A stretch of DNA of 64,000 bases from an uncultured Candidatus Peribacteria bacterium (GCA_964451705.1 CAYVIV010000001.1:62807-126806); one strand, 5' to 3'. Positions 14,364 to 58,614 are shown, counted from the first letter of the stretch. Notes: generated by a model from the sequence alone, not told the origin. Program-made: numbers and translations.

Positions 14364-16271
14364 ATGAAGATTTCAGTAAGCTCACAGATATTTGACTCTA
14401 TTTCGAATTTGCACTCAAACTTTGTCTATGTGGAGGGGCTGGAATTCAAGCAAGATATGCAACATGAGCTGTATGATGGTTTAAACGAAGTTTTTTCTAG
14501 ATTGCGAGGTCATAAATCTATATCTGAAGATAAACAAATTCAAATTTACCAGGATGTATTAGAACAAATTGGTTTGGCCCACGCTTCGGTTTCGACAAAA
14601 AAGATGGTCGATTTGATTGTAGAAAAGAAAAAAGATTTAATTTTGCACCATCCTATTATAGATTTTTATAACTATTTTAGTTTACATACTTTAACGCCAA
14701 TTGGTGCTTACGATGTGGATCGTATAGATGGGGATATTTTGATTAGAAAATCTAATCCCACAGATAGTTTTAAAAAACTTGGCCAAAGCAAGTCTGATAA
14801 AGTAACACATGATTCTGTAGTAATGGCAGATAATGTTGATATTATGTGTTTGGACTGGGTTTATAAGCAGTCTGAAGGACAGAAGATTAGACCTCGTACA
14901 AAAAATGTACTATTTAGAATCGAGTCTCTTAACGATGAGATTGCAAATGCTAAACTCTTGAATGAATTTAAAGAAGATTTGTCTAAATTTTTTAATTTTA
15001 AAACTATTCAGATTGAAACTTTAACTAATTCAGATCCGGAATCTACAATTAAGCTATCAAAAGAGGCAACTGCGCGAAGGGATAGGTACCAAGATTATAC
15101 AGATATTTTAGCTCGTGGAGTTTCGGATGTGATAGTCTACGATGATTTAATGGCGGACTTGATAGAAGGTAAAAAGTTGAAGGTCAAACATGGAGTTGAC
15201 CCAACTAAAAGATCTCTTACGCTTGGGCATGCTGTTAACTATGAAAAACTTCGGCAATTTCAGCAGAGGGGACACGAAATCCAGTTTTTAATTGGTTCTT
15301 TCACTGCTATGTTTGGAGATCCTACAGATAAGTCTGAGTCTCGAACTATGAGGACCAAGCAAGAGGTCATGGATATGGCTAAAAACTATATTCAGCAGGT
15401 AACTATGATTTTAGATAAGTCGAAGCTTAAGGTTTTTTATAATGATAAGTGGTACTCTAAAATGCCTGTCGAAGAGTTTTTACGGCTTTTATCATCCAGC
15501 ACTGTTGCGCGTATGTTAGAGCGAGATATGTTTCAAAAAAGAATTGAGGATGGACGAGAGATTGGTTTGCATGAGCTTATTTATCCTATTTTGCAAGGTT
15601 ATGACTCTGTAGAAATGCAGTCAGATTTAACAGTTATTGGTACAGATCAAACATTTAATGAGCTGCAAGCTAGACCTTTGCAGAAAGATAGGGGACTAAA
15701 GCCTCAGAATGTAATTAGTATGCACATGTTGCTTGGGACAGATGGTAAACTTTTAATGAGCCAATCTCAGGGGAATTATATAGCAATGGATGACACTGTT
15801 GATGATAAATTCGGTAAATTAATGAGCATCCCAGATTCGGCAATCCAAACGTATGCCAATGCTTTGTCGCGGTACTCACGTAAGGAATTGCAGGCTTTGT
15901 TTTCTCGTTTGGATGCTGGGGAGAACCCACGTAATGTCAAAATGGATTTAGCAGAGCATATTGTTGCAAATTTTCACGGTGAGAAGGCGGCTCAAAAAGC
16001 TCGAGCAGGATTTAAGGAAATTTTTCAAAATAAAGGCCTGCCCGAAGATATGCCTAAATTTGTTGCTAAACCTGAGCACACAATTCTAGAGATTTTGCAG
16101 TTGTCATCACTGGTAACCAGTGGTTCTCAAGCCCGAAGGTTAATAGCTCAAGGTGCGGTGAAGGTGTATGAAGGTGATAAGATTATGGATGTCTCTATGA
16201 GTTTTAAAGCAGGTCAAAAGCTAGTCCTGCAGGTTGGTAAACTTAAATTTTTGGATTTAACAATTGAATAG
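14364..16271 (+). CDS. tyrS: Tyrosine--tRNA ligase fused to an N-terminal B3/B4 (PheRS-beta editing-like) domain
   Basis: 635 aa. Residues ~90-190 (HHPIIDFYNYFSLHTLTPIGAYDVDRIDGDILIRKS...RTKNVLFRIES) fit the solitary B3/B4 domain pattern. Residues ~245-635 are a TyrZ-type TyrRS: GVDPTKRSLTLGH, FLIGSFTAMFGDPTDKSESR, GKLLMSQSQGNYI, KFGKLMSIPDS and a C-terminal S4 domain (SGSQARRLIAQGAVKV). Confidence 0.8.
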   Translation: MKISVSSQIFDSISNLHSNFVYVEGLEFKQDMQHELYDGLNEVFSRLRGHKSISEDKQIQIYQDVLEQIGLAHASVSTKKMVDLIVEKKKDLILHHPIIDFYNYFSLHTLTPIGAYDVDRIDGDILIRKSNPTDSFKKLGQSKSDKVTHDSVVMADNVDIMCLDWVYKQSEGQKIRPRTKNVLFRIESLNDEIANAKLLNEFKEDLSKFFNFKTIQIETLTNSDPESTIKLSKEATARRDRYQDYTDILARGVSDVIVYDDLMADLIEGKKLKVKHGVDPTKRSLTLGHAVNYEKLRQFQQRGHEIQFLIGSFTAMFGDPTDKSESRTMRTKQEVMDMAKNYIQQVTMILDKSKLKVFYNDKWYSKMPVEEFLRLLSSSTVARMLERDMFQKRIEDGREIGLHELIYPILQGYDSVEMQSDLTVIGTDQTFNELQARPLQKDRGLKPQNVISMHMLLGTDGKLLMSQSQGNYIAMDDTVDDKFGKLMSIPDSAIQTYANALSRYSRKELQALFSRLDAGENPRNVKMDLAEHIVANFHGEKAAQKARAGFKEIFQNKGLPEDMPKFVAKPEHTILEILQLSSLVTSGSQARRLIAQGAVKVYEGDKIMDVSMSFKAGQKLVLQVGKLKFLDLTIE

Positions 16272-19009: not shown

Positions 19010-22000
19010 TTAGAGTTGTGTTTTATGACCTGTTGCATAATATGCATTTTGTAGTTGCTGTTCGCTATAACCCCTCATGCTAATTACAGATAGAAGTTCA
19101 GCTTCTAGACTTCTATTATTAAGGCCTTTAAAGTACAGTTTAGCTAGCTCATTTATATTCATTTGTAGTAACCTTCTTTTAAAGAGATTGAGTTTAGATA
19201 CATTACTGCTAACTTCATCTACACGTTCGTACCATCTTTTACGTTGCTCTTTTCTTTCTCCACTAAAGGCATATTTACCACTTTCATAGGCTGCATCTAA
19301 TGTTCCTGTTGCTGCATTACCTGCTGCCTTCCATGTTCCGCTAAAGGTACCGTGATTTATCAAAGGAAGACCTATAGATATGCCTAGGGTTGTTAGGAGA
19401 GTTTTTTCTGCTGCATTTAGAACTTTGAGACCTACGCTTCCACTGTTAATCAATTTGTCTGCAAGCTTAGCATAATTGCTCGTAGTATTGTTTTTTGCTA
19501 GGTGAGTAAATACTTTTAGTTCATCCTTATTTGCAATATTCGAAAGCTTTGTTAAGTCTTTACGATGTTTTAAAACAGTTGCAGTTAGTTCCTTAGCTTC
19601 GTTTATCAACCCTAAATTATTGTTTCTAAGTGCTTTAAAGTCTTGATTTGCATGCTTACTTAATTTTCTATTATTCATGTTTAATGCCTTTGCTAGAGTC
19701 TCATAGTTTGTGTAAGGCGTTCCATTAGGTTTCTTAAATATAGCTAGCAACTGTCTTTCTATTTGTGCTCGGCGGTGTGTTAAAGCAACTACTTGTGCGT
19801 TTACATCTTGAAACTTCTCAAAGGCTTTAGCACCAGCTTGCACAGCGGCTTTGTTGACTCCTAGCCCCGCAGTTAAGGCTGTTGCTACTTTATTGTTTAT
19901 GCCTCTACGCACGACTCTAATACCTTTCATAATTGGTTCAAGTGCTGTTTTACTAGCTCTGTAAATAGCTCTGGGGATTCTGTAACCTAGACCTAACACA
20001 CTAGATGCTGCTGCAGGTAGGAATGCTGCTGCATGAAAGACATTTGGTGCATTAATATAGGCTCTTGGATGAGTCCAGGCCCTACCTAGTCTATTGAAGC
20101 CTTGGAGGTTTTTACCAAAATGACTACTCCCCTCTGTGAATCCCCTCCAACCTTGTTTAAAGGTTTCTTTAGTTCTTGCAAGTGCTGTTAGTGGCTGTGA
20201 GGCGTCTACTAATTTATTGAGATCATTTGCTTTATCATATAGTTTATTTGCTGTATTTACTCTATTACCTATTATATGCCCAATTTTATTCCCTACTCTG
20301 GCTAATATAGGGGCTTTAGAACTTGCATGGGCGACTTTGGCAGCTCCTGTACCTAGTTTAGATCCAACGAGTGCAGCTCTTAAACCTACTCCAACTCCTC
20401 CAAATAAAGTTAAGACATCTGTACCAAGTTGTAATAAACCAAAACCTGCCGTAGTTACTCGTTCCCAGCCACTTAGCTTGTCTCCAGCTAATGTTTGGCC
20501 ACGAAAGACTTGAGTAAAGGTAAGTATGGTACCTAGAACTGGTACAAACATTCCGACTGTTTCTCCAACACTGACTCCTATTTTAGAGATAGATGAATTG
20601 CCACTAGTGGCATCTAGTAAATGTGGTAGTCCCACTACACCTCCAACTACCCCTGCCATTCCTACTCTCTTGATTGCACCATAACGAATCTCTTCGACAA
20701 TTTCTTCACCTGTTTTGCGAACTTGTGATTTGGTCACTTGCTGACTACTGATCTTATCCATGTCTTCTGCTGTAGTTTTTAGCAAAGTATCTGTTTGTTG
20801 CCCAGCTACTGTTTTAGATAGGCTTGTTCCAGAAGTTTTCAATCTACTGGCTTCATCGAAGGCAGCAGTGTAGGAACTAAAATGAGACTGGGCTTTTGCA
20901 TGGGCCGCTCTATGATTTGTTAGTTCTTCACTAATTTTCGTGCGAGATGTTTCGTCTGCAGCCTGAGATAGTTTTTCTAGTAAGTGTTTTTCTTGGCTTA
21001 AAGCTTTTTGGTTAAAGTCTTCAATGTACTGGCTAAACTGTCCCATTTTTTTATTGATATCTTTGCTGTTTAGATTACTGCTTTGCAGATTATCTATATC
21101 TGGAATTTTACTTACTAGTTTTTTCGTTTGATTAAATGCTTTCTCAGTAGTTGTAGCATTCCTAATTGTCTCTGAACTGGCATAGGCTAGTGTTCTACCA
21201 GCATTTACGTGAGATGCTTGAAACAAGTGGCCTTTCATAAAGCGTGGCCAGATCCTGGCAGCTCTGTAGAATGTTATTAGTCGTTGTCCAATAAAATCAT
21301 ACTTTGTGACTCCTGATACGTTGTCAAATGTTGCTAAAATTAAGAGTTCTAGTGGTAGTGATTTTAGGTCTCTTGCCATTAGTTTTAATTCTTGTTTGGC
21401 TGTTTCACTAAGTTTGTCATTAGAATTAATTGCTGCAATAAACTCAGTTTGGAAGGTGCTGACTCTACTTTCGGAGAGGAATCTTTTTAATTTCATTAAG
21501 TTAGCCTTTGTCTGTGCTGGTACTTTGGACATTACGTTATCATTCTTGATATTGCGTAACAGTGTGTCTAAGGTAAAGTGTTGTATTTGTCTTAGATGTC
21601 TTTTCTCGATGCCTATCTTAGTAGCAGCAGTTGCAAATATTTTTGCAGACCTGATGGATAGTGGAAGTCTAGATAAACCTGTGATTTTATCCAGTCCTAG
21701 CTGTCTAGATATTTTACCAAATGTACTTTGATCTTTGTTTTCATCTAGAAATACGTCATCTACCATATAGTTAATATCCTCCAAACTATCTACACCTGGT
21801 ACTTTAAGCTGACTATTTGCAATTGCATTATTTATAAGAGAGTTGATTTCACCATAGTTTTTACTAGTATCAAGAGCCTTTTTGATTTGTTGATACTGTC
21901 TGGGCGCAACTAGTTTTTCTAGTATATTCAGGGCAATTGTTTTTTTTCTTTGATTACTTTGCAAGCTAGCAATTGCACTTTTTTGCATTTCTTGTTTGTG

Positions 22001-22420
22001 CTTATCTTCAAAGATTAGGCTAACTTGGTTTTTAAACAAGTTACTATTAATTAGTTGTGCGGTTTCTCTAAATAACTCTTCAAACTTATCATGTTCGTTG
22101 TTTACTAAGCTTTCTATCATTGCAGATATCTTTGTTTTAACTGGTGCGGCTAACTGTTCTGCCACCCCTGTGTTTTGGTTCAGGCTAAGTTGACTTTTTA
22201 GCCAGCTTTGAAGGCTTTGGAACATTTCATCTTTTAACATCTGCCTTTTATTGCTTGCGCGTCCGTAAACTTCTAGCATAGATTCTAACATTTGTCGGTA
22301 CCCACTAATAGCTTCTGTCGTGTTTGCGAGTTGAAATTCCGTAATCAGCCTAGACCTATCTATTGTAGCTGGCACTTGTGAACTAGCTTTTTCTCTAGTT
22401 GTAGGTTTGTTGTCATTCAT
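19010..22420 (-). CDS. Large (1136 aa) helical protein of unknown function with an internal glycine-zipper hydrophobic core
   Basis: One uninterrupted ORF with no N-terminal signal peptide. Long K/E/Q/L-rich helical stretches flank a Gly/Val/Leu-rich block (GMAGVVGGVVGLPHLL...VGMFVPVLGTILTF...AGFGLLQLGTDVLTLFGGVGVGLRAALVGSKLGTGAA). I see no family signature I recognise. Confidence 0.7.
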   Translation of the reverse strand: MNDNKPTTREKASSQVPATIDRSRLITEFQLANTTEAISGYRQMLESMLEVYGRASNKRQMLKDEMFQSLQSWLKSQLSLNQNTGVAEQLAAPVKTKISAMIESLVNNEHDKFEELFRETAQLINSNLFKNQVSLIFEDKHKQEMQKSAIASLQSNQRKKTIALNILEKLVAPRQYQQIKKALDTSKNYGEINSLINNAIANSQLKVPGVDSLEDINYMVDDVFLDENKDQSTFGKISRQLGLDKITGLSRLPLSIRSAKIFATAATKIGIEKRHLRQIQHFTLDTLLRNIKNDNVMSKVPAQTKANLMKLKRFLSESRVSTFQTEFIAAINSNDKLSETAKQELKLMARDLKSLPLELLILATFDNVSGVTKYDFIGQRLITFYRAARIWPRFMKGHLFQASHVNAGRTLAYASSETIRNATTTEKAFNQTKKLVSKIPDIDNLQSSNLNSKDINKKMGQFSQYIEDFNQKALSQEKHLLEKLSQAADETSRTKISEELTNHRAAHAKAQSHFSSYTAAFDEASRLKTSGTSLSKTVAGQQTDTLLKTTAEDMDKISSQQVTKSQVRKTGEEIVEEIRYGAIKRVGMAGVVGGVVGLPHLLDATSGNSSISKIGVSVGETVGMFVPVLGTILTFTQVFRGQTLAGDKLSGWERVTTAGFGLLQLGTDVLTLFGGVGVGLRAALVGSKLGTGAAKVAHASSKAPILARVGNKIGHIIGNRVNTANKLYDKANDLNKLVDASQPLTALARTKETFKQGWRGFTEGSSHFGKNLQGFNRLGRAWTHPRAYINAPNVFHAAAFLPAAASSVLGLGYRIPRAIYRASKTALEPIMKGIRVVRRGINNKVATALTAGLGVNKAAVQAGAKAFEKFQDVNAQVVALTHRRAQIERQLLAIFKKPNGTPYTNYETLAKALNMNNRKLSKHANQDFKALRNNNLGLINEAKELTATVLKHRKDLTKLSNIANKDELKVFTHLAKNNTTSNYAKLADKLINSGSVGLKVLNAAEKTLLTTLGISIGLPLINHGTFSGTWKAAGNAATGTLDAAYESGKYAFSGERKEQRKRWYERVDEVSSNVSKLNLFKRRLLQMNINELAKLYFKGLNNRSLEAELLSVISMRGYSEQQLQNAYYATGHKTQL

Positions 22421-22429
22421 GATATATAT

Positions 22430-24166
22430 TTATTTTTTAAAGTTATAATTCTCTAAGTGTTTGATCCTGGCGTAGGTAGCCTGACCAAAAATCGATGTTG
22501 CCGGTGGAATTGTTTGATTTGTTAGAATAGCCCTTTGTTTAAGTGTAATTGTAGCTAAGCTATCTTGAATTGTTACTGTGTAATCTATGTCTTTTTTAAG
22601 TTTGTTTCCATTTGTTGCAGCATTTAATAGCTTCAATTTATCAATTTCATCTTTACCAGTTGTAATAGTGCTGTTTTCTGCAACATACAAGGCATTTGAT
22701 GCTGGTATGTTTAGACCAGCAGCTATTGTGAACTTATGTTGTTTATCATTGTGGACCTCTGTTTGTTTACGATTTGTAGGTTGTTGTGTTGCTGTGATGG
22801 TTTCAACTGTCTCGATTGTTTGTGTGTTTGGTGCAGCTACCTTGTGATCTGCTACCTGTTCACCTTGTTCGAATCTTGCATAGTCTTTATTGAAAGTTAC
22901 AATGTGTTTAGCCCGAGTTAAGACTGCAGAGAATATTGCAAAGGCTCCCACACTAAGTTTGGTTGTTGGTACAGAACTATCAGAAGCTAGTATGTAGTAT
23001 ATTTTTTGGCGATCCAGCATACCTAGAAATTCTAGTGTCGAAATTAACATACTTTTTTGACCTCGTTTTTTGAGTATCTCTATACGTTCTTTAATTTGAG
23101 CAGCACTTAATTTAGGTCTTTTTGCACTTTGTGCATCAGTTTCTTCTTGTGTTTGTTGATGGGTTGACGGCACTAAAACTGTAGAGTCATCTGTATTTTC
23201 AATCTGTTCTAGAGTGGGTTGTGGGTTTACAGTCTCAACATTTGCTCTTACTGTCTCTCTATGAGTATCATAATGCGTTTTGATAGTGCTGACTTTGCCT
23301 TGTAAGTCTTTATCATCAAGAGGTTTATACAATGTTGATGTATCTATTGAAGTCCAAGATTTTCCTGTGTTACTACCATCAATTCGATAGACTTGCGGTT
23401 TGTCTTGCTCTTGAAAATTAATAAGTTCATATGCATTATCATCAGTTTTTCTAAATGCAAGGTAAGCTAACATACTTGGTTCAAATAGCATCTTAGCTAG
23501 TAGAGCCATGCCTTTGTTAGGTATTCTGACTAGTTCATTTTGAGTGACAGCCTCTGTTTCTAATAATTTGATGAGTTCTGTTTCACAATCACCATTATTA
23601 AAGTCTGTGTCCCCAGTCGTGTCACCTGAATCTAATGTGATAAAGCTGTCACTGCTAGTATCTGGCTTATTGGTTGCGATATAGGTTTTCATTTGCCCAA
23701 TCTTGTCTGGATCGAGCTGATTATCTACAACTTTGCTATATGCTGACCCCTCTCTAAAGTCGTCTGCATTACTCCACTGCTCTAAACTTAGATCTTCACC
23801 TAGACTGTAATTTTGAGTACCCCCTTGGTAGTGCAAGCAATATAGGTACTTTAGGTAGGTGTGTTTGTCTTCAAGAGATGTAATGCTTGCTGGAAACTTA
23901 TACTTTTCATATGGGTCTTGGGTGTGTCTAAGTTGGTCTAGTTTTATAGTTCTATAATTTGACTTAATACTTTCTTGCAGTTCATGGCTAAGGTTTGCCT
24001 TTTGAGTATTTGTAACCTCGAGATCAGAGCGCAATTTGTAGAGTGCTCGAAAGTCTGTAATGCTTTGACTACCATTTGTTTCAAGATAGTATGGGCCTTG
24101 ATTTGGGCGTGATGGTACGACCATTTGTGAGGGGGTTATTTTGAAATTAACTAAATTATACCACAA
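22430..24166 (-). CDS. Hypothetical 578-aa protein, unknown function
   Basis: Long ORF that ends 9 nt upstream of the 1136-aa ORF. No signal peptide or recognisable motif. It has an acidic/Thr-rich middle and a Q/T-rich linker. The true start may be the internal Met at MVVPSRPNQ. Confidence 0.65.
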   Translation of the reverse strand: MWYNLVNFKITPSQMVVPSRPNQGPYYLETNGSQSITDFRALYKLRSDLEVTNTQKANLSHELQESIKSNYRTIKLDQLRHTQDPYEKYKFPASITSLEDKHTYLKYLYCLHYQGGTQNYSLGEDLSLEQWSNADDFREGSAYSKVVDNQLDPDKIGQMKTYIATNKPDTSSDSFITLDSGDTTGDTDFNNGDCETELIKLLETEAVTQNELVRIPNKGMALLAKMLFEPSMLAYLAFRKTDDNAYELINFQEQDKPQVYRIDGSNTGKSWTSIDTSTLYKPLDDKDLQGKVSTIKTHYDTHRETVRANVETVNPQPTLEQIENTDDSTVLVPSTHQQTQEETDAQSAKRPKLSAAQIKERIEILKKRGQKSMLISTLEFLGMLDRQKIYYILASDSSVPTTKLSVGAFAIFSAVLTRAKHIVTFNKDYARFEQGEQVADHKVAAPNTQTIETVETITATQQPTNRKQTEVHNDKQHKFTIAAGLNIPASNALYVAENSTITTGKDEIDKLKLLNAATNGNKLKKDIDYTVTIQDSLATITLKQRAILTNQTIPPATSIFGQATYARIKHLENYNFKK

Positions 24167-24262: not shown

Positions 24263-25909
24263 TTAGAGTTCTTTGAGCATGTAGCTACCGTCTAAATGAT
24301 AGCCAAGTTTTTTATAGTATTCTCGAGTGCCAATAGCAGAAATCACAGCAATTTTTTTATATCCTTCCAGCTTAGCTTGTGCCTCTGCGGCTTGCATAAG
24401 TTTTGTGCCTAGGCCAAGGTGTTGGCTTTTGGAGTTGAGTTTGGTTTTGGATAAGCTTTCTTGCTTGCCATAGACATGTAGTTCTCGAACAATGGCAGCA
24501 TCTTTGAGCTCTGGAATAAAAACATCAGAATTATTAAGGCAGCGCAGTCGTACTAAGCCAATTAATTTGTCTAATTGAGGCTCTACAACAGATATAAAGT
24601 ACTCTGTTGCCTGGTTACTTTGGTATTTGTAGCTTTGGATTTCAGTATTTTTTATATCAAATGCTTGGTCTTTAATTTCTCGACAGCGAATGCATTTACA
24701 TTCGACCTTTTTATCTTTAAGTAGTTGTCGCATGTTTAGGGTTTTGGAACCCTTTAAAACTAGGTCCGATGGGAAATCACGTAATATACGGATGATCCTG
24801 CAATATTCTGGGACAATTTTCTTTGTAGCAGCTAGGAGTTCAAATAATTCTGGGTCTGTATATGCTTTGTAGATGCTCGGGTCTGCCTCTACCATTTTAG
24901 CCAGCTTGGTATATGGCACTACCATACATGGATAGATTTTAATGTAGTCTGGATTGAGAATATCTTTTTCAAAACAGTCGTGAATAGTTTGCAGGTCTGA
25001 TTCTAGAGTGGATTTAGGTAGGTTTGGCATTATATGATGGCAAATTTTCAGGCCAGCATCGCGGCAGAGCTTGGTGGCAGCCACCGATGTTTTGAGGTCG
25101 TGGCCTCTTTCGCTAAATTCATTTACTTTGTCATCTGTGGTTTGGATGCCAAGTTCTATACCGGTCACACCATAGTCTCGCAGACGCAGAATTTCTTCTT
25201 TGGTCACCCAGTCTGGCCGGGTTTCGACCCAAAGGCCAACACAGCGAGAGTTTGCTGTTTGATTCTCATGAATTAAGTCCTCTAGTTTAGCCTGGCTTAT
25301 GTTTTGGTTGGCAACTGCTAGTTCTTCAATGTCCCCTGGCCCTTGGTTGAGGGCGTAGTAGATTGATTTTATAAAATGTAGCTGATAATCATGCAGATAG
25401 GATGACCAAGTCCCCCCTGCCGTGCGAATGTCAATTTTGCTGGTGTCATGCCCTTGTGTTTTTAATCCATTCAAACGAGCTTTGACTTGAGTATATGCAT
25501 CGAAATCATTACGGACAGCTCTAAGCATAGCTGGTTGGTTGGAGAAATAACTTTTAGGCATGCCTGGTTGTGTTGGACAGTAAATGCATTTGCCCGGACA
25601 GCCAAATTCCTTGAGCATAACAGTAATATTGGCTATTCCAGAAAGAGTACGTACTCTACGCTTGGTAATAAAATTGAGTACCTGCTGGTTGGCTGCTAAA
25701 GCTCCACTGTCTACCAGTTTGTTATAAGCGGCTACTAGCTCAATATTGCGAGGTGGGGTTAGCTTATGTTTTTTTGTGAGTTTGTTGCGTAGTTTTTCGA
25801 GCGTGCGTTTATCTAGCATTTCGGCCCCTGCCATCTCTATGAATTCATAGATTGCTATAATCACCTCTTTGGCGAGTTGTTCGTAGTTTTTACGTAATTC
25901 GTAGTTCAT
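24263..25909 (-). CDS. elp3: Elp3-family radical-SAM/GNAT tRNA uridine(34) carboxymethyl-forming enzyme
   Basis: 548 aa. The radical-SAM cluster motif is GCPGKCIYCPTQPGMPKSY. The C-terminal GNAT segment QHLGLGTKLMQAAEAQAKLEGYKKIAVISAIGTREYYKKLGYHLDGSYMLK closely parallels the canonical Elp3 tail (QHxGxG...ISGIGxRxYYRKLGYxLxGPYM). Confidence 0.85.
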   Translation of the reverse strand: MNYELRKNYEQLAKEVIIAIYEFIEMAGAEMLDKRTLEKLRNKLTKKHKLTPPRNIELVAAYNKLVDSGALAANQQVLNFITKRRVRTLSGIANITVMLKEFGCPGKCIYCPTQPGMPKSYFSNQPAMLRAVRNDFDAYTQVKARLNGLKTQGHDTSKIDIRTAGGTWSSYLHDYQLHFIKSIYYALNQGPGDIEELAVANQNISQAKLEDLIHENQTANSRCVGLWVETRPDWVTKEEILRLRDYGVTGIELGIQTTDDKVNEFSERGHDLKTSVAATKLCRDAGLKICHHIMPNLPKSTLESDLQTIHDCFEKDILNPDYIKIYPCMVVPYTKLAKMVEADPSIYKAYTDPELFELLAATKKIVPEYCRIIRILRDFPSDLVLKGSKTLNMRQLLKDKKVECKCIRCREIKDQAFDIKNTEIQSYKYQSNQATEYFISVVEPQLDKLIGLVRLRCLNNSDVFIPELKDAAIVRELHVYGKQESLSKTKLNSKSQHLGLGTKLMQAAEAQAKLEGYKKIAVISAIGTREYYKKLGYHLDGSYMLKEL

Positions 25910-26000
25910 AGTTTCTTTTTGCAGTTATTTTATGTTTTTAGCTTTGTATTTGTCAAATTGGCTTTTTAATTTTATAATTAATGCACTTAGTTTTACAAAC

Positions 26001-26681
26001 ATGGTTTTACACAAAGTTGTTAACGAAAGTTATAATCAGATCGCTAGTAAATTTTCTAAATCCAGAAATAAGCCTTGGTTAGAGTTTGATTTATATAACA
26101 AAATTGCAGCGCCAAATTCAAATATACTCGATATAGGTTGTGGTAATGGTCGGTTGCTTTTATCTTTAAACAAGCCAGGTATCGCCTATACAGCTTTGGA
26201 TATATCTTCGGAAATGTTAGTCCAAGCCAAGCAAAACTTAGCCTCGGTAAACTGTCAGAAAACTTTTGTTTGTAGTAACTTTTTAGATGCTAATTTAGGA
26301 GCTAATTCATTTGATAGTATTTTTTCTGTGGCCTGTTTACATCATATACATGGATTTTGGAATAGATTAGCTTTTTTGAATGCTATTTATGACTGTCTTA
26401 AGCCAAATGCGACTGCTTGTGTCTCTGTATGGAATTTGTGGCAGCCACGCTATGCTAAGAATTTCAAACAAGCTGCTAAAAAGAGTTTGTTTGCAAGAAG
26501 GGACTTAAATATCAAATTTGGCCAAACAGCTAGGTATTACCATGCTTTTGGCTTTTGGGAGTTGAAGTTTTTGGTTTTTTGTAGTAAGTTTAGAGCTTGT
26601 GATATACTATTTGTAGACAAACAGCAGTATTTACCATCACAAAAAAACTCTCATAATATGATTTTAATTTTGAATAAATAA
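26001..26681 (+). CDS. Trm9-like class I SAM-dependent methyltransferase
   Basis: The ORF track starts at 25932. That 23-codon hydrophobic extension would leave only 22 nt to elp3, so I prefer the ATG at 26001 (MVLHKVVNESYNQIASKFSKSRNKPWLEF). SYNQIASKFSKSRNKPW matches Trm9 VYxxIAxHFSxTRxKPW. ILDIGCGNG is the SAM motif I. FSVACLHHI, VWNLWQ and RYYHAF also parallel Trm9. Confidence 0.7.
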   Translation: MVLHKVVNESYNQIASKFSKSRNKPWLEFDLYNKIAAPNSNILDIGCGNGRLLLSLNKPGIAYTALDISSEMLVQAKQNLASVNCQKTFVCSNFLDANLGANSFDSIFSVACLHHIHGFWNRLAFLNAIYDCLKPNATACVSVWNLWQPRYAKNFKQAAKKSLFARRDLNIKFGQTARYYHAFGFWELKFLVFCSKFRACDILFVDKQQYLPSQKNSHNMILILNK

Positions 26682-27431
26682 ATGTTGTATTTCCACAAAG
26701 CGCCAATTTTTAATAAATCGGCAGACGACTTATTGCAGCTATGTTTGGAGAGAATTAAAGAGGCAAAATATACTAGTTTTATAGCGACACCAAATCCAGA
26801 AATGTATGTTGAGGCTGTCCACAATAAGGCTTTTAGATCTGTTTTGCAAAACACCAGTTTTAACATTATAGATGGTTTTGGTTTATACCTAGGTTTGAGA
26901 TTGTTTGGCTTTAAAGTTCAGCGTTTAACTGGAACAGACTTGGTGGAGTCTTTACTCACTAACTCTAGGGCAAGTTTTTACTTGCTCGGTGGTGCCAAAG
27001 GCAACGCCAAGCTTATACAGCAAAAGTTTCCTAAGGCTCGGATAGTTGGACACTTCGATGGAGCTGTGAATGCAAAGTCGACCCAAAAAATCTTGAGTCA
27101 AATTAATGAGCTTAAACCTCAGGTGGTTTTAGTGGCTTTGGGAGCTGTAAAGCAAGAAAAATGGATTCTGGATAACTTGACTGATTTGCAAGCTTCCAAG
27201 CTCTTAATTGCTTGTGGTGGGGCCTTAGATTATTTATCTAATAAAGTTACAAGAGCACCGAGATTTTTGCGAAATCTAGGCTTAGAGTGGTTATATAGAC
27301 TCTTAAGACAACCAAAACGTATTTTTAGGATTTTCAAGGCAGTTGTTGTGTTCCCTATTGTGTTTTTTCTGGTAGAACTAGTTTGTTTCTTGTATAGGAT
27401 TGTTCAGGCTGCTTATACCAAGTGCAAGTAG
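26682..27431 (+). CDS. WecB/TagA/CpsF-family glycosyltransferase (ManNAc transferase-like)
   Basis: 249 aa. IATPNPEMYVEA, DGFGLYLG, LGAVKQEKW and LEWLYRLLRQPKRIFR are the family pattern. The start abuts the upstream stop (TAAATG). Confidence 0.8.
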   Translation: MLYFHKAPIFNKSADDLLQLCLERIKEAKYTSFIATPNPEMYVEAVHNKAFRSVLQNTSFNIIDGFGLYLGLRLFGFKVQRLTGTDLVESLLTNSRASFYLLGGAKGNAKLIQQKFPKARIVGHFDGAVNAKSTQKILSQINELKPQVVLVALGAVKQEKWILDNLTDLQASKLLIACGGALDYLSNKVTRAPRFLRNLGLEWLYRLLRQPKRIFRIFKAVVVFPIVFFLVELVCFLYRIVQAAYTKCK

Positions 27432-28095: not shown

Positions 28096-28437
28096 TTAAT
28101 TCTTGAGTTTTTTCTTGCTAGACTTCGAAGCAGATTTAGAACCTGTGTCAGAGTCTGAACTAGATTTGCTTCTGGCCTTGTGTATATAATCACGAATAGA
28201 CTTTTCTATAATTGGCGTAAGCTTGCCTACTATAGATAAAAGCATATCAATTGGTCCGGTAACAATACTATGCACTCTAGATGTTATATCCCCTGTCGAA
28301 TGGCTAATTTTTCTAATATCTTTTAGAATCTGGTAAACTTTAAAAAGAACTAAACTTAAGAAGAATAAACTTAAAACCCCACCAAGGTATAATAATGCTT
28401 GAAAAATTTGTTCTAAGGTATATACGTTTGTAAGCAT
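28096..28437 (-). CDS. Small membrane-anchored protein with a Ser/Lys-rich tail, unknown function
   Basis: 113 aa. It has one N-terminal TM helix (ALLYLGGVLSLFFLSLVLF), a helical middle and a KSSSDSDTGSKSASKSSKKK tail. Confidence 0.5.
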   Translation of the reverse strand: MLTNVYTLEQIFQALLYLGGVLSLFFLSLVLFKVYQILKDIRKISHSTGDITSRVHSIVTGPIDMLLSIVGKLTPIIEKSIRDYIHKARSKSSSDSDTGSKSASKSSKKKLKN

Positions 28438-37884: not shown

Positions 37885-38319
37885 ATGCAAACTGTTAATC
37901 ATCACTCTTGTGGCACCGTGGTTTACCACCAATTAAATGATAAAGTAGAATATTTACTGCTTCAATACCCCCAAGGACACTGGGATTTTGCTAAAGGTCA
38001 TATAGAGGAGAATGAGAGCACTGTTGCCTGTGCACTGCGAGAACTAACGGAAGAAACTGGACTAAATAAGATTCAGCTAATCGATGGGTTCTTTCATGAA
38101 TTATCTTATTACTATCGTCAAGATGCTGTTGCGCATTATAAAAAGGTCGACTTTTTCTTGGTGGAAGCCTTTGAGACTCAAGTTAAAATTTCACATGAAC
38201 ATCAGGATTTCAAATGGTTGCCATTCCAGGATGCCCTAGAGTTAGTTAGTTTTGAAAATGCCAAAAACCTGCTTATTGCTGCGGATAGTTTTTTAAAAAC
38301 TCTGCATGGGCCTGCTTAA
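37885..38319 (+). CDS. Nudix hydrolase
   Basis: 144 aa. GHIEENESTVACALRELTEETGL matches the Nudix box GX5EX7REUXEEXGU. Confidence 0.8.
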   Translation: MQTVNHHSCGTVVYHQLNDKVEYLLLQYPQGHWDFAKGHIEENESTVACALRELTEETGLNKIQLIDGFFHELSYYYRQDAVAHYKKVDFFLVEAFETQVKISHEHQDFKWLPFQDALELVSFENAKNLLIAADSFLKTLHGPA

Positions 38320-39817
38320 TTTGCTCTAAATATTCTAGGTCTTTAAGCTGAGTGTCGCTAAAAATATTTTCTAATGTTTGGTAGCTGGATTTATAGTTAA
38401 TATAGTCTGTATTGTATTTCACGTGCCTTAAATACCAGTCTTTATAGTTTTTAAGCCACTGTGAGTCAACTTGAAGTGTGTCAATTTGCATATCTGGATT
38501 TAACTTTAGGACTAATTCTAAATGTTCTAATGTCCAAGGGTCTTGTTTAAAGACTCTTAGGCTAAGTGCTGGGTCTTGCGTGCTTTGTGCTAAGGCGTAA
38601 AGCACAGGCGTGTCTATGGGGTTTTGTTGTATGTGTTGGCTGAGTTTGCCTTCTTGGACTAAATAGTCTTTATGAGCCACAAGGCTACTGCTTGCATACT
38701 GAGGATACCTAATAATTACCAGGCTCAAAACTGCAATGGTTGTTAGCAATACTGTGGCAGTTTTTTGTATATTATTAAGTTTAGCTTTGCTGTCTGGAGC
38801 TTTTTGGCTAATGAGTACTATGAGCACAAAAATACTCAGTCCAAAATTAATGTTTAGATCTAACATGTTATGTAGCGTAAAAGGTACTAAGGCCAGTATG
38901 CTTGCACGTGGTAGTTGGCGTAAATATCCCCAAAAAATGTATATGCAGACAGCTAGTATTAAAAAACCATGTTCCAGACCAATGTCGAGTAATAAATTAT
39001 GGGCATGTATAGATTTATTGAGGGGTATTGTTTGTACCTGTGGATACAAATACTGAAAGCTTTCAGCACCTGTACCAACCAGGCTTTGTTTTAAATCAAA
39101 GAGTTTTGGAGTGTTGCGAAAGAATTCTAGACGATGGGTCGCACTAGATATCCCTTGGGCTTGCTGGAGTTTGTGTTGGTAGTTGTCAGAGAACATAGAA
39201 GATAAGATAGCAATTCCAAGCATACTAACTACTCCAAGAAACAGTAGATACTTTTTAGACTGAGCTTTAAATGATTTAGAAAAGTAAATTTTCACTCCCA
39301 TAAAAGCTAATATCAAGGCCAAGGCAATTCTAGATTTGCTTAAAAAGATTGTGATAATATTTAGCAGGACCAATGGTCCTTGAATAAATGGTGTAATTAA
39401 CAGCATTAGGCTTGCTAATGAATTAGGGTATATTTGTCTGGGGTCAAAGATGTTCATATAAGTCCCAAAGCCAAAATCAAAGTTAAAATATTGATAAATT
39501 GCTAAGCCAAACATTAAAATGCTTAGTGCTTTGAATAGTTTTTGTTTGCAACTGTCTTTTATAAAAAAGACTGCTGGCCCCAGTACTGCTGCTAGATAAA
39601 GTAGGCTTTGTTCTAGAGATTGGCTTGGAATTTGTGAATAAAGAAAACTTATCACAAATAAGGCAATAGCAATGATATGCTTTTTTTCTAGATAATTAAC
39701 TTTAAAACTTGCTAGGCACATCGCAGTAAATAAGCCAAGAGCACCAAAGCTACTATTGTAGTCATTAAAGATGAGACTACTTATTAATGCTAAAAAAATT
39801 GCAAATTTATATATCAT
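38273..39817 (-). CDS. O-antigen ligase / Wzy_C-family polytopic membrane protein with a soluble C-terminal domain
   Basis: The track ORF runs to 39976, but its first 53 codons are antisense to tRNA-Leu. I use the ATG at 39815-39817 (MIYKFAIFLALI...). The protein has ~10 TM helices plus HAHNLLLDIGLEHGFL, which is the Wzy_C signature. Confidence 0.65.
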   Translation of the reverse strand: MIYKFAIFLALISSLIFNDYNSSFGALGLFTAMCLASFKVNYLEKKHIIAIALFVISFLYSQIPSQSLEQSLLYLAAVLGPAVFFIKDSCKQKLFKALSILMFGLAIYQYFNFDFGFGTYMNIFDPRQIYPNSLASLMLLITPFIQGPLVLLNIITIFLSKSRIALALILAFMGVKIYFSKSFKAQSKKYLLFLGVVSMLGIAILSSMFSDNYQHKLQQAQGISSATHRLEFFRNTPKLFDLKQSLVGTGAESFQYLYPQVQTIPLNKSIHAHNLLLDIGLEHGFLILAVCIYIFWGYLRQLPRASILALVPFTLHNMLDLNINFGLSIFVLIVLISQKAPDSKAKLNNIQKTATVLLTTIAVLSLVIIRYPQYASSSLVAHKDYLVQEGKLSQHIQQNPIDTPVLYALAQSTQDPALSLRVFKQDPWTLEHLELVLKLNPDMQIDTLQVDSQWLKNYKDWYLRHVKYNTDYINYKSSYQTLENIFSDTQLKDLEYLEQIKQAHAEFLKNYPQQ

Positions 39818-39888
39818 AGTTTTTTTTAAATTATCATAGACAATAATCTTTCTTTTTGCTATTTTTATTTTACTTTTAGACACTTTAT

Positions 39889-39975
39889 GCCGAAGTGGCG
39901 GAATTGGTAGACGCGCGGGTCTCAAAAACCCGTTCAGGCAACTGAGTGAGGGTTCGATTCCCTCCTTCGGCACCA
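39889..39975 (+). tRNA. tRNA-Leu (anticodon CAA), CCA encoded
   Basis: I folded it by hand. Acceptor GCCGAAG/CTTCGGC; D arm GCG-GAATTGGTAGA-CGC; anticodon arm CGGGT-CTCAAAA-ACCCG (anticodon CAA); long variable arm TCAG-GCAA-CTGA; T arm GAGGG-TTCGATT-CCCTC; then ACCA. Confidence 0.9.
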
Positions 39976-40011
39976 TATAGTGTTTTTAACTGTGCCTTTT
40001 ATAGATATTGC

Positions 40012-43307: not shown

Positions 43308-44448
43308 TCATTCCTAAAACTCCTTGAAATTTGTAACCTAAAATCATTGCTGTAATTACGACGATTGGGTGCAGCCCAGTGGCCTTTTTCATAATCATAG
43401 GCACCAGCAAGTTGTTTTCTAGTCTTTGGATAATAAAGTATAAAATACTGACTGCAACGACAGCAGACCAGCCCATGTTAAAGGCAATTGGTAATGTAGT
43501 TACCCAGGCTAAAATTGGCCCGACAACTGGTACTAACTCTGTAAACCCAGCAAATAAGGCCAGCGTAAATGCATACTTAATATCCAAGGCCACAAGTCCA
43601 ATATAGGTTAGAGTACCTACTGCTAGCATTTGTAGTACTTGGCCTTTAAGCCAATTACCGACCTTAGATTTAATTCGCTGTGATCGGTTTTCTATATAGG
43701 TTTGGTACTTGAGTGGAAATAATGAAATTATAAAGCGTTCTATGCTTTCGTGGTCAACTGTCATAAAGTAGGTTAAAACCAAAACCAAAATCGCATTCGC
43801 TAAACCATTAGAAATACTAATTATCAAATCGACAGCATTACCTGCAATAGAGCTCAAATTGCCTCCGGCTGTGAGCAGGTTTTTTTGGAGCGAACTTGTA
43901 ATTTGAGTATTAGATAGATTGGAAAAACTTTCTTGAATAGCAGGTTGGAAGGTTTGTAAGAACCGCGGCAGTTCTATAGATCCATCACTAAACTGGCTAA
44001 GTAGCTGTTGTGCGTGGAAGGCTAGGTCTACAAGCTCCATAGACAGAATTGGTATTAGGTTACCAACCATTAACGAAAGTGCTGTAATTAATACAACATA
44101 TATAATCAAGACAGAGACTCCCTTGGGAATTTTGTATTTTTGGAGTTTTTTTACAGATGGCACAAGTGCTGCTGCAAATAGATAGGAGAAAAATAGAATA
44201 AAGGCAATATCACGTACTTCATAAAAAACAAAGGCTGCTGCAAATAACCCAATGATTACTAGAGAGGCTTTGGCAACATCGTTCATAGGAATTTGGACAA
44301 TCCTTGTGGAGTCCTTTTTCTTAGTTGACTTTGGTGCCTTGATTTTAGCTGGTGCTGCAGTCTTTTCTGCAGTACTAGCCTCTAGTTTCTCTAGAGTTTT
44401 GAGGGCGAGTTTTTTTAGTTTTTTAAGCATAATATTAATATGAAACAA
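43216..44448 (-). CDS. AI-2E (PerM/UPF0118) family transporter
   Basis: 410 aa, polytopic. The conserved C-terminal half includes FTELVPVVGPILAW and RLENNLLVPMIMKKATGLHPIVVI. The start may be the Met 6 codons downstream (MLKKLKK). Confidence 0.8.
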   Translation of the reverse strand: MFHINIMLKKLKKLALKTLEKLEASTAEKTAAPAKIKAPKSTKKKDSTRIVQIPMNDVAKASLVIIGLFAAAFVFYEVRDIAFILFFSYLFAAALVPSVKKLQKYKIPKGVSVLIIYVVLITALSLMVGNLIPILSMELVDLAFHAQQLLSQFSDGSIELPRFLQTFQPAIQESFSNLSNTQITSSLQKNLLTAGGNLSSIAGNAVDLIISISNGLANAILVLVLTYFMTVDHESIERFIISLFPLKYQTYIENRSQRIKSKVGNWLKGQVLQMLAVGTLTYIGLVALDIKYAFTLALFAGFTELVPVVGPILAWVTTLPIAFNMGWSAVVAVSILYFIIQRLENNLLVPMIMKKATGLHPIVVITAMILGYKFQGVLGMIISIPLAGIVGMFLHDYLVKTHHIPEDTEG

Positions 44449-44962
44449 GTGTTTGCACTAAGTCTACAATCATCCAGCTACATAATGCTATTATTAAACC
44501 AAAAATTGCATTTTTGACTGTAGCTTTGGCTTTGGTGTCTTCTCCTTGGACCATGGCCAAGAAGTATTGATAACCACCCAAAACAATAAAGAGCATAGAT
44601 AGTACTCCGGCGAGTACACTTAGATTTTTAATTAAATAAACCACAAATGGTTTCCACATATACAATCGAATCCTTCCAGTGACTATGGCACAGCCCAATA
44701 AATCTGCTTCTGTTAACTCTTGATTCACTTTTGTTAAAGCCCATGCAAAGCGCTTATAGCTATTATATTGGTGACTTGTGAGGTTTTCACCACCATCATT
44801 GCTAGTGTTTTGGTAGGCTGTGTCGAAGCTTCTTAATTTCTTTAGGCAATTAGCTCTGGATTGGTCGGTTTTGGGAAGGACAGAAAAGTCCTGGGCAAAA
44901 ACTGATTGGCTTAAGCCGAGGAAAAGAGCTGTGAATATGAATAATTTGATGATTTTGGTCAT
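44435..44962 (-). CDS. Small secreted/membrane protein, VirB2/TrbC-like (T4SS-pilin-like) architecture
   Basis: 175 aa. A signal peptide (FTALFLGLSQSVFA) is followed by two C-terminal TM helices around a short polar loop (LAGVLSMLFIVLGGYQYFLAMVQGEDTKAKATVKNAIFGLIIALCSWMIV). Confidence 0.5.
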   Translation of the reverse strand: MTKIIKLFIFTALFLGLSQSVFAQDFSVLPKTDQSRANCLKKLRSFDTAYQNTSNDGGENLTSHQYNSYKRFAWALTKVNQELTEADLLGCAIVTGRIRLYMWKPFVVYLIKNLSVLAGVLSMLFIVLGGYQYFLAMVQGEDTKAKATVKNAIFGLIIALCSWMIVDLVQTLVSY

Positions 44963-49075: not shown

Positions 49076-49105
49076 TTTTGGGTGGTTAATTTAAATTAAG
49101 ATGCT

Positions 49106-49134
49106 ACTTTAGCTTTAAACTTTAATTTTGTCAA
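49106..49134 (-). promoter_or_regulatory. Putative promoter of the 891-aa SLH gene (TTGACA, 17-nt spacer, TAAAGT)
   Basis: On the minus strand, TTGACA is at 49134-49129 and TAAAGT is at 49111-49106. The start codon lies about 30 nt downstream. Confidence 0.45.
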
Positions 49135-49206
49135 TATAAAAGCTTAGGAATTGGAAATTCCGTAGGCCAGGCATTTATTATTCAATTAAGGTACAGTGAG
49201 TGGTAA

Positions 49207-49236
49207 GGGCGGCGCGCCGCGCAGGCGCGCCCGCCC
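49207..49236 (-). other. Near-pure G+C hairpin (12 bp, one bulge), possible terminator or RNA-stabilising stem
   Basis: The sequence is GGGCGGCGCGCC-GCGCA-GGCGCG(C)CCGCCC. It begins 4 nt after the stop of the 1257-aa ORF. There is no U-tract on either strand. Confidence 0.4.
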
Positions 49237-49240
49237 AAAC

Positions 49241-53014: not shown

Positions 53015-53190
53015 TGTTTTTGGCTAATTTAACTTTATACTATATCATTTTTTCATGAAGATAAAAAGCTTTGCTTTGCAAAATCGCTAAAAACTTGTCT
53101 GCCTTTTTTTACTGTTTTTTTTGAAGCTTTTGGATCTGATTACTATACTGGAATAATGTTTCTGTTGTTTGGTAGTTTATGCTTTTAGGA

Positions 53191-53226
53191 TTCAAAAAGC
53201 TCCCAGGTTTTTATGCTGGGAGCTTT
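53191..53226 (-). terminator. Rho-independent terminator after the 1728-aa gene
   Basis: The minus strand reads AAAGCTCCCAG-CATAAAAAC-CTGGGAGCTTT followed by TTGAA. It lies 47 nt after the stop. Confidence 0.6.
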
Positions 53227-53272
53227 GAAGTTTTTGGTTTATATTTTTAGGCTTACCGTCAGGTTTTGCCTA

Positions 53273-58459: not shown

Positions 58460-58529
58460 GTTGCATGGTTAAATTTTATATATTTTAATAGGTATAGCGC
58501 AAAAATGCGATTACCCAAATAATAGCTAG

Positions 58530-58550
58530 GCATAGACATATAGTCTATGC
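58530..58550. promoter_or_regulatory. Perfect palindrome GCATAGAC-ATATA-GTCTATGC upstream of the 1728-aa gene
   Basis: It has 8-bp perfect arms and a 5-nt spacer. It lies 71 nt upstream of the start at 58459 and directly downstream of the preceding terminator. Confidence 0.3.
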
Positions 58551-58554
58551 TTTT

Positions 58555-58586
58555 TGCAAAAAACCGCTTTACAAAAAGCGGTTTGC
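58555..58586 (-). terminator. Rho-independent terminator after the 374-aa SLH gene
   Basis: The minus strand reads AAACCGCTTT-TTGT-AAAGCGGTTT followed by TTTGC. It starts about 30 nt after the stop at 58615. Confidence 0.6.
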
Positions 58587-58614
58587 AGCTTTGGCAATTG
58601 CTGGATTAATGTTT

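Follow-up and report, generated by a model that had tools for sequence, protein, structure and literature searches.

A 64,000-nucleotide stretch of DNA from an uncultured Candidatus Peribacteria bacterium (GCA_964451705.1, CAYVIV010000001.1:62807-126806; hereafter the window) carries two adjacent, divergently oriented genes. One encodes a full-length Elp3 and the other a class I S-adenosylmethionine (SAM)-dependent methyltransferase in which catalytic and substrate-binding residues of Trm9 are kept. The same pairing recurs in several bacterial phyla. We consider it probable that the two enzymes act in sequence on the wobble uridine of tRNA (U34), Elp3 making 5-carboxymethyluridine (cm5U34) and the Trm9-like enzyme converting it to 5-methoxycarbonylmethyluridine (mcm5U34).

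In this scheme, Elp3 would use [4Fe-4S]/SAM radical chemistry and acetyl-CoA to place a carboxymethyl group on C5 of U34. The 226-amino-acid methyltransferase, a putative bacterial orthologue of Trm9, would then methyl-esterify the carboxyl group of cm5U34 with SAM as donor. Where a 2-thiolase also acts, the product would be mcm5s2U34. The two genes would form a self-contained wobble-uridine module, oriented divergently around a common promoter region of 91 bp. The chemistry, the tRNA substrates and an activity of the methyltransferase without the partner protein Trm112 are the parts of the scheme that we infer.

A first-pass annotation of the window had already proposed this two-step pathway. 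It had named the minus-strand gene an Elp3 with the motif GCPGKCIYCP and a GNAT tail, and had recognized Trm9 hallmarks in the neighboring product. Both open reading frames (ORFs) lie where it placed them (24263..25909, minus strand, 548 amino acids; 25932..26681, plus strand, 249 amino acids), and all of its quoted motifs are present, in the methyltransferase SYNQIASKFSKSRNKPW, ILDIGCGNG and RYYHAF, an agreement well beyond chance. The Elp3 assignment is borne out by the family model TIGR01211, whose cut-off is passed, and by cluster cysteines that align intact. The Trm9 assignment agrees with the retention of seven of eight essential residues and with a profile selected by gene context, which ranks Trm9 first. 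Together with the pairing across phyla, these residues and this profile also support the proposed pathway, as far as sequence comparison can.

Elp3 and its linkage to the methyltransferase

The Elp3 gene shows the following features.

24263..25909, minus strand: elp3, radical-SAM/GNAT (lysine acetyltransferase, KAT) tRNA U34 carboxymethyl synthase, 548 amino acids, assigned by TIGR01211, Pfam and PDB matches
25577..25600, minus strand: [4Fe-4S] cluster motif CPGKCIYC, residues 104-111 with C104, C108 and C111, identical in the Elp3 of Dehalococcoides mccartyi (DmcElp3)
24683..24700, minus strand: linker cysteine triad CKCIRC, residues 404-409, the zinc site of bacterial and archaeal Elp3, aligned with CRCIRC of DmcElp3
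24398..24424, minus strand: acetyl-CoA-binding motif QHLGLGTKL of the KAT domain, aligned with QHRGLGRKL of DmcElp3

The protein scores 479.5 bits on the NCBIfam model TIGR01211 (ELP3; cut-off 350), and its residues 29-548 cover model positions 9-522 of 522. Pfam detects the domains Radical_SAM, Radical_SAM_C and GNAT, the last with matches at residues 485-540. The best solved relatives are DmcElp3 (5l7j; 8e-90, 305 bits) and the M. infernus Elp3 (6ia8; 6e-89), and the Elp3 subunits of mammalian and yeast Elongator are found as well. The CxxxCxxC motif is present in 55 of 55 Elp3 genes examined. The inter-domain cysteine triad is known to bind zinc in bacterial and archaeal Elp3 (PMC6367351). 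Because the family model, the Pfam domains, the solved relatives and the intact motifs agree, the gene is, judged from its sequence, a full-length and intact Elp3 whose family membership is secure.

An N-terminal extension of ~85 amino acids precedes the region that aligns with DmcElp3. It aligns with the M. infernus enzyme from residue 29 and contains 16 lysines and arginines against 10 aspartates and glutamates. DmcElp3, with 459 amino acids, lacks such an extension, whereas nearly all other linked bacterial Elp3 genes carry it, their radical-SAM motif starting at residue 87 or later. In archaea and eukaryotes the extension has been tied to tRNA binding, and its absence to the weak in vitro activity of DmcElp3 (PMC6367351, PMC7663514).

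More than 4,500 Elp3 homologues were found at E<=1e-30, many of which NCBI already names Elp3 in Patescibacteria and Chloroflexota; a 2026 paper likewise places Elp3 in ‘numerous bacteria’ (PMC13315578). The earlier statement that stand-alone Elp3 occurs in only a few bacteria is therefore outdated. The public record of the window gene also reads Elp3, and its partner is entered as ‘class I SAM-dependent methyltransferase’.

The linkage of the two genes was surveyed by scanning one genome per species with an alignment of the methyltransferase family, which yielded 80 loci. Elp3 is encoded within 10 kb in 58 of them and is both divergent and adjacent in 49. Seven of the 22 loci without Elp3 have too little upstream sequence for a judgement, and most of the others represent the weakest methyltransferase matches. 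According to their records, the loci belong to Saccharibacteria, Gracilibacteria, Paceibacterota and other Patescibacteria, to many Anaerolineales/Chloroflexota, to Fermentibacteria and Myxococcales, and to further taxa. One crenarchaeal locus (L025) falls into the same linked family. The pair is also carried by Dojkabacteria AP024679.1 and by a 1.0-Mb contig, JBESAV010000001.1.

When the ORFs around the pair were clustered over 59 loci, only the Elp3 and methyltransferase families recurred. No third conserved gene was found near the pair in these loci; the next clusters consist of shadow ORFs antisense to elp3. The pairwise distances of one protein correlate strongly with those of the other (r = 0.88; Mantel test, 0/2000 permutations). 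This agrees with inheritance or transfer of the two genes together, though some correlation is expected for any two genes passed on vertically. The pair is a conserved module found widely in bacteria and not a peculiarity of the window genome.

Two arrangements differ from the divergent one. Among the Elp3 proteins of the 80 loci, the closest (65%) is encoded in a metagenome-assembled genome (MAG) of Gracilibacteria (L003), where elp3 precedes the methyltransferase gene in the same direction at a distance of ~50 bp. In four MAGs labelled Gammaproteobacteria (L019, L028, L032 and L034), elp3 is found on the same strand 3.8-5.5 kb upstream; these labels look doubtful, as the contigs are small and of low identity.

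Active-site residues of the methyltransferase

The features of the methyltransferase are listed below, residue numbers being counted from the ATG at 26001 (226-amino-acid form).

26001..26681, plus strand: Trm9-like class I SAM-dependent methyltransferase, 226 amino acids, assigned by a linked-family hidden Markov model (HMM), by residues and by an AlphaFold2 model
26031..26078, plus strand: N-terminal Trm9-type motif YNQIASKFSKSRNKPW, residues 11-26, in which Y11, R22 and K24 correspond by alignment to Y18, R29 and K31 of yeast Trm9 (ScTrm9)
26127..26210, plus strand: SAM motif I LDIGCGNG, and D67 as the acidic residue of motif II (ScTrm9 D72, Yarrowia Trm9 D83), invariant in family alignments
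26337..26666, plus strand: pocket residues, from alignment, H114/H115 (LHHI), W144 (VWNLWQ), F173 (DLNIKF), R178/Y180 (RYYH) and N219

Alanine substitution has defined eight residues without which yeast Trm9 loses its function (R29, D72, H116, W145, W168, R241, Y243 and N271), while H24, K31, R122, E148 and D270 are dispensable (PMC4678810). Seven of the eight essential residues are identical in the window protein, namely R22, D67, H115, W144, R178, Y180 and N219. The eighth is F173. Within the pocket, H114/H115, W144, F173, R178/Y180 and N219 occupy the positions of ScTrm9 H115/H116, W145, W168, R241/Y243 and N271. Also kept are ScTrm9 H115, Q149, K31 and Y18, the last a modelled ligand of the carboxylate. 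R122, E148 and D270, dispensable in yeast, vary freely across the bacterial family. The structure 3sm3, which is an uncharacterised archaeal methyltransferase and the main competitor of Trm9 in the searches described below, shows T, S, F, D, F, A and a gap at the pocket positions; of the eight essential residues it retains only the SAM-binding aspartate.

The N-terminal helix was tested against the motif Y-N-x-I-A-x-x-F-x-x-T/S-R-x-K-P-W. Y11, F18, R22 and W26 are invariant in an 18-member alignment of the family, and R22 and K24 align with R40 and K42 of Yarrowia Trm9. The PDB reference for Trm9 is the Yarrowia chain 5cm2_Z. The crystallised chain is missing the first 38 residues and, with them, the most diagnostic motif; for this reason the equivalence of Y11 and ScTrm9 Y18 was taken from published numbering (PMC4678810). 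The numbering used for the mapping was verified: each numbered Yarrowia residue falls on the expected letter. The overall pattern is the one expected if a cm5U substrate pocket is conserved, and it discriminates where the fold does not.

The methyltransferase next to elp3 in D. mccartyi (CP019867.1) has variant motifs. It has 224 amino acids, is transcribed divergently 43 bp from elp3 and scores 117 bits on the HMM of Elp3-linked methyltransferases. Unlike the window protein, this product (L086 5283-5957, minus strand) shows NAGCGCG in place of DxGCGNG, RYYR in place of RYYH and F in place of the N-terminal Y. It retains the equivalents of R29, D72, the two histidines, both tryptophans, R241, Y243 and N271.

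Alternative readings

Several results weigh against an mcm5U34 pathway, and they are best considered together with the alternatives that they favor. The first group comes from similarity searches. In Pfam, the methyltransferase matches the generic class I models Methyltransf_11, _25 and _12. Neither Pfam nor NCBIfam contains a Trm9-specific model, and no curated family model names the protein. A single-sequence search of the PDB places Trm9 (3.2e-9) level with 3sm3 (2.1e-9). With a profile of the eight closest sequences, Trm9 drops to 15th rank (37 bits) and 3sm3 leads (52.7 bits). An AlphaFold2 model of the protein (mean predicted local distance difference test, pLDDT, 88.6) has class I topology, and in a Foldseek search Trm9 comes third, with no statistical difference from 3sm3 and 3e23; the latter was named the closest structural homologue of Trm9 by the authors of its structure (PMC4678810). 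Fold and overall similarity, as far as the model can tell, are consistent with Trm9 and do not discriminate it from generic class I methyltransferases.

These search results, together with the public label, are what would be expected if the methyltransferase were an ordinary SAM enzyme acting on an unrelated substrate (a small molecule, lipid, protein or other RNA), its position beside elp3 being meaningless. No NCBIfam cut-off is reached: CmoM NF008264 (22.7 bits, cut-off 366) and CmoA TIGR00740 (34.3, cut-off 193.3) are missed, and CpaM (53.8 bits, cut-off 180), BioC (50.8, cut-off 184.95) and UbiG (40.3, cut-off 102.95), like UbiE, lie far below theirs. The matches of the CpaM/BioC/UbiG type, of which CpaM is the best, are confined to the SAM-binding core.

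Larger profiles give a different ranking. With 22 members, Trm9 comes first (139.7 versus 87.3 bits), a margin that may be biased because four members are possibly eukaryote-like; with 18 members of Patescibacteria type it still leads (91 versus 87.3 bits). Since the rank was seen from the eight-member result to depend on sampling, a profile was instead built from 55 methyltransferases chosen solely by their adjacency to Elp3 in other genomes, with the window protein left out. With this context profile, Yarrowia Trm9 is the top PDB match (105.4 versus 88.8 bits, the E-values lying about five orders of magnitude apart), although the crystallised chain is missing the N-terminal motif. Used as an HMM against the six-frame translation of the window, the same 55 sequences match only this gene (164 bits, E 5e-50). 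As single-sequence, narrow-profile and fold searches fail to separate Trm9, its assignment rests on residues and genomic context. Both speak against an ordinary enzyme with a chance neighbor: the Trm9-specific pocket is kept and is absent in 3sm3, Elp3 is the sole co-conserved neighbor, and the divergent adjacency holds in 49 of 80 loci over several phyla and in D. mccartyi. We regard that explanation as very unlikely.

The linkage itself is common and not universal, as seen from the Elp3 side. Four Patescibacteria Elp3 homologues on long contigs were picked regardless of their neighbors; a divergent methyltransferase stands next to two of them and is absent beside the other two, which also counts among the adverse findings. 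The latter two loci (L089, JAHIUN010000007.1; L090, ERZ27247864:k141_3083178) encode an Elp3 57% identical to that of the window and show no Trm9-like gene within 3 kb. The partner may be encoded elsewhere in these genomes or be absent; if it is absent, the pathway would end at cm5U or another derivative.

A further adverse point concerns Trm112, which eukaryotic and archaeal Trm9 require. No Trm112-like motif was found by a pattern search in the six frames of the window, and no Trm112-like small neighbor is conserved near the pair in the 59 loci. In the window protein, N, A, N and G stand in place of the hydrophobic residues of Yarrowia Trm9 that Trm112 shields (V59, F78, A110 and P112), and the interface positions are polar or charged across the bacterial family. 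The lack of a Trm112-like ORF in the window or conserved near the pair and the replaced hydrophobic interface together suggest that the bacterial Trm9-like enzyme may stand alone, without a Trm112 partner.

Two observations bear on the product. No xcm5U derivative (cm5U and related nucleosides) has been reported from any bacterium (PMC7663514), and the tryptophan corresponding to W168, essential in yeast and present in most relatives, is replaced by phenylalanine in the window lineage, a conservative exchange. Both would fit a pair that acts jointly on RNA and yields something other than mcm5U34, be it through another Elp3 intermediate, another position or RNA, or a further derivative that is uncatalogued. 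The variants NAGCGCG and RYYR of the D. mccartyi neighbor and the weak in vitro activity of DmcElp3 point the same way, as does the diversion of cm5U to unidentified products in Haloferax volcanii lacking Trm9 (PMC6144793). Against such an outcome, the residues modelled at uracil O2/N3/O4 and at the carboxylate (N271, H115, R241 and Y18) are all kept, and the hydrolysis of acetyl-CoA by bacterial Elp3 is triggered specifically by tRNA (PMC6367351). A different joint product is in our view unlikely, if somewhat less so than the ordinary-enzyme explanation.

Lastly, the pair could be a relic acquired horizontally from archaea and non-functional in the window genome. Archaea and eukaryotes are the typical hosts of Elp3 and Trm9, and the linked family includes the archaeal locus L025. 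Such a relic is hard to reconcile with two intact ORFs that carry all catalytic residues and show no anomaly in guanine-cytosine (GC) content. Synteny and promoter motifs are preserved among relatives at 54-77% identity, both genes co-diverge, and the methyltransferase family, clustered at 50% identity, counts 1,571 representatives (E<=1e-30). We hold this possibility to be extremely unlikely, and the two-step route to mcm5U34 is retained as the preferred reading.

The locus and its relation to known pathways

Two further features belong to the immediate surroundings of the pair.

25910..26000, no strand assigned: divergent promoter-like region, 91 bp, from consensus match and conservation
26682..27431, plus strand: WecG/TagA-family glycosyltransferase (Pfam Glyco_tran_WecG, 1.3e-45)

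Public gene calls give the methyltransferase a longer ORF that starts at 25932 and encodes 249 amino acids. This start was rejected in favor of the ATG at 26001 (M24 of the long form), which is most likely the true start of a 226-amino-acid protein. The first 23 codons of the long form are hydrophobic and find no equivalent in homologues (~233 amino acids), close relatives have an elp3-methyltransferase spacer of 86 bp, and a conserved promoter-like element lies inside the extension. The ORF from 25932 exists as given, and with the favored start the spacer becomes 91 bp instead of 22 bp.

Two sigma-70-like promoters are predicted in this spacer. On the plus strand, toward the methyltransferase, TTGTCA (25950) is separated by 17 nucleotides from TATAAT (to 25978), the -10 element at 25973-25978 lying inside the long ORF. 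On the minus strand, toward elp3, TTGACA (25956) is followed after 18 nucleotides by TAAAAT (to 25927). The two -35 hexamers overlap at 25950-25956. Each of the two agrees with the consensus at 11 of 12 positions, and four such sites were seen against 1.3 +/- 1.3 in shuffled sequences. The promoter cores ATTGTCAAAT and TTTATAAT are kept in four lineages whose methyltransferases are just 54-60% identical. As the two genes have a common 91-bp promoter region with overlapping -35 elements, they are probably co-regulated.

The TAA stop of the methyltransferase abuts the ATG of the WecG-type glycosyltransferase (26679-26684). The latter gene is probably co-transcribed with the methyltransferase, though it stands outside the conserved module. 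In relatives (L081-L085, L087 and L088; 54-77% identity), the local order is Elp3, methyltransferase, WecG-type glycosyltransferase, RsmE, a small ORF and GatB; the order from methyltransferase to GatB is not kept in other phyla. The small ORF between RsmE and GatB (28096-28437, minus strand) has 113 codons here and 90-99 in relatives at the conserved position. Its product is a probable membrane protein with a Ser/Lys-rich tail and is not Trm112-like; no Pfam match is recorded for the relatives’ copies. Directly downstream of elp3, on the same strand, two large ORFs of 1136 and 578 amino acids (19010-24166, minus strand) have no Pfam match, and close relatives carry other genes in their place.

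The window as a whole is low in GC (~36-38%), and its genes are those typically seen in a Patescibacteria/Peregrinibacteria-type bacterium with a small genome. At 14364-16271 (plus strand) it encodes a 635-amino-acid protein of tyrosyl-tRNA synthetase type (tRNA-synt_1b, residues 270-555) with an N-terminal B3_4 domain (residues 92-210), a domain otherwise known from the PheRS beta subunit. This fusion is unusual and might contribute to editing or to the binding of tRNA. The window has a single tRNA gene, for tRNA-Leu(CAA) (39889-39975, plus strand), and this gene overlaps the longest ORF of a Wzy_C (O-antigen-ligase-like) protein on the opposite strand (38273-39976, minus strand), whose true start is probably further downstream. 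A 175-amino-acid protein at 44435-44962 (minus strand) ends in a type IV secretion system pilin domain (PF18895, 9.7e-9). The region 46400-59739 (minus strand) holds several probable cell-surface genes in a row, encoding an 891-amino-acid protein with Ig-like/ASH and SLH domains, a 374-amino-acid SLH-domain protein and two giant ORFs of 1257 and 1728 amino acids without any Pfam match.

The closest functional parallel to the pair is the eukaryotic system of Elongator with Trm9-Trm112 or ALKBH8-TRMT112. Both share the two enzyme families, the proposed order of action, and the domains and cofactor motifs of Elp3; the N-terminal motif and seven of the eight essential residues are common to eukaryotic Trm9 and the window methyltransferase. 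In contrast to eukaryotic Elongator, the window Elp3 comes without the subunits Elp1, 2, 4, 5 and 6. A stand-alone Elp3 is the prokaryotic norm. The window genes also differ from the eukaryotic ones in being physically paired around a common promoter region and in lacking a detectable Trm112, in the window or conserved nearby, with the interface patch replaced. The methyltransferase has neither the AlkB nor the RRM domain of ALKBH8. Long proteins of ALKBH8 type were not found among the top 150 profile matches, all of which are stand-alone proteins of ~230 amino acids; one distant family member carries an automatic ALKBH8 label from JGI.

Archaea provide the second parallel. As in the window, the archaeal Elp3 is a stand-alone protein with an N-terminal extension. 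H. volcanii has an Elp3 (HVO_2888) and a Trm9 (HVO_1032), and its Trm9-Trm112 was shown to convert cm5U to mcm5U in a cm5U-dependent manner; mcm5U is lost upon deletion of trm9, and Trm112 is needed in vivo (PMC6144793). An Elp3-Trm9 gene cluster was noted in Sulfolobus solfataricus in 2008 (PMC2584109). Clustering in Sulfolobus and in the crenarchaeal locus L025 resembles that of the bacterial pair, but is co-directional, whereas the bacterial genes are mainly divergent. Archaeal Trm9 has been reported only in Sulfolobales and Halobacteriales (PMC5372719); the window host, in contrast, is bacterial, and the family described here is widespread in bacteria.

Among bacteria, D. mccartyi offers the best solved match of the window Elp3 and a divergent Trm9-like gene beside it, with the differences in extension and motifs noted above. 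The MnmE-MnmG(-MnmC) route to 5-(carboxymethyl)aminomethyluridine-type nucleosides, (c)mnm5U, and the CmoA/CmoB/CmoM route to uridine 5-oxyacetic acid and its methyl ester, (m)cmo5U, also act on C5 of U34, again to tune wobble decoding. Their enzymes and chemistry are unrelated to Elp3-Trm9, with the parallel that CmoM likewise methyl-esterifies a carboxyl on the U34 side chain. Domains of MnmE, MnmG and MnmA were not found in ~81 kb (the window and ~17 kb of flanks from overlapping contigs), which is only a fraction of the genome.

A 2020 review placed bacterial Elp3 in Dehalococcoides only, with bacteria modifying wobble uridines via MnmEG (PMC7663514), and a 2017 review of Trm112 stated that no bacterial genes similar to Trm112-dependent methyltransferases are detectable (PMC5372719). 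A conserved cassette of Elp3 and a Trm9-like enzyme, spread over many bacterial lineages and present in D. mccartyi, which can be cultivated and supplies the structural reference for bacterial Elp3, points the other way. Full-text literature searches gave no account of a bacterial Trm9 or of an Elp3-Trm9 pair, and the 2016 paper on DmcElp3 may yet mention the neighboring gene (PMC5018218). The pair is a putative bacterial addition to the known mcm5U pathway, and its possible independence of Trm112 is the most novel point.

It is conceivable, though we would lean slightly against so broad a claim, that the candidate phyla radiation (CPR), Chloroflexota and several other phyla make mcm5U34 by a two-gene cassette with a Trm112-free Trm9, and that the cassette may replace MnmEG in small genomes. 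If this is the case, mcm5U, so far documented only in eukaryotes and archaea, would become a modification of all three domains, and thousands of entries now called ‘class I SAM-dependent methyltransferase’ could be renamed. The family would supply a natural Trm112-independent Trm9 for structural and mechanistic work, and full-length bacterial Elp3 proteins, with their N-terminal extension for tRNA binding, would serve better as models than DmcElp3 with its weak activity.

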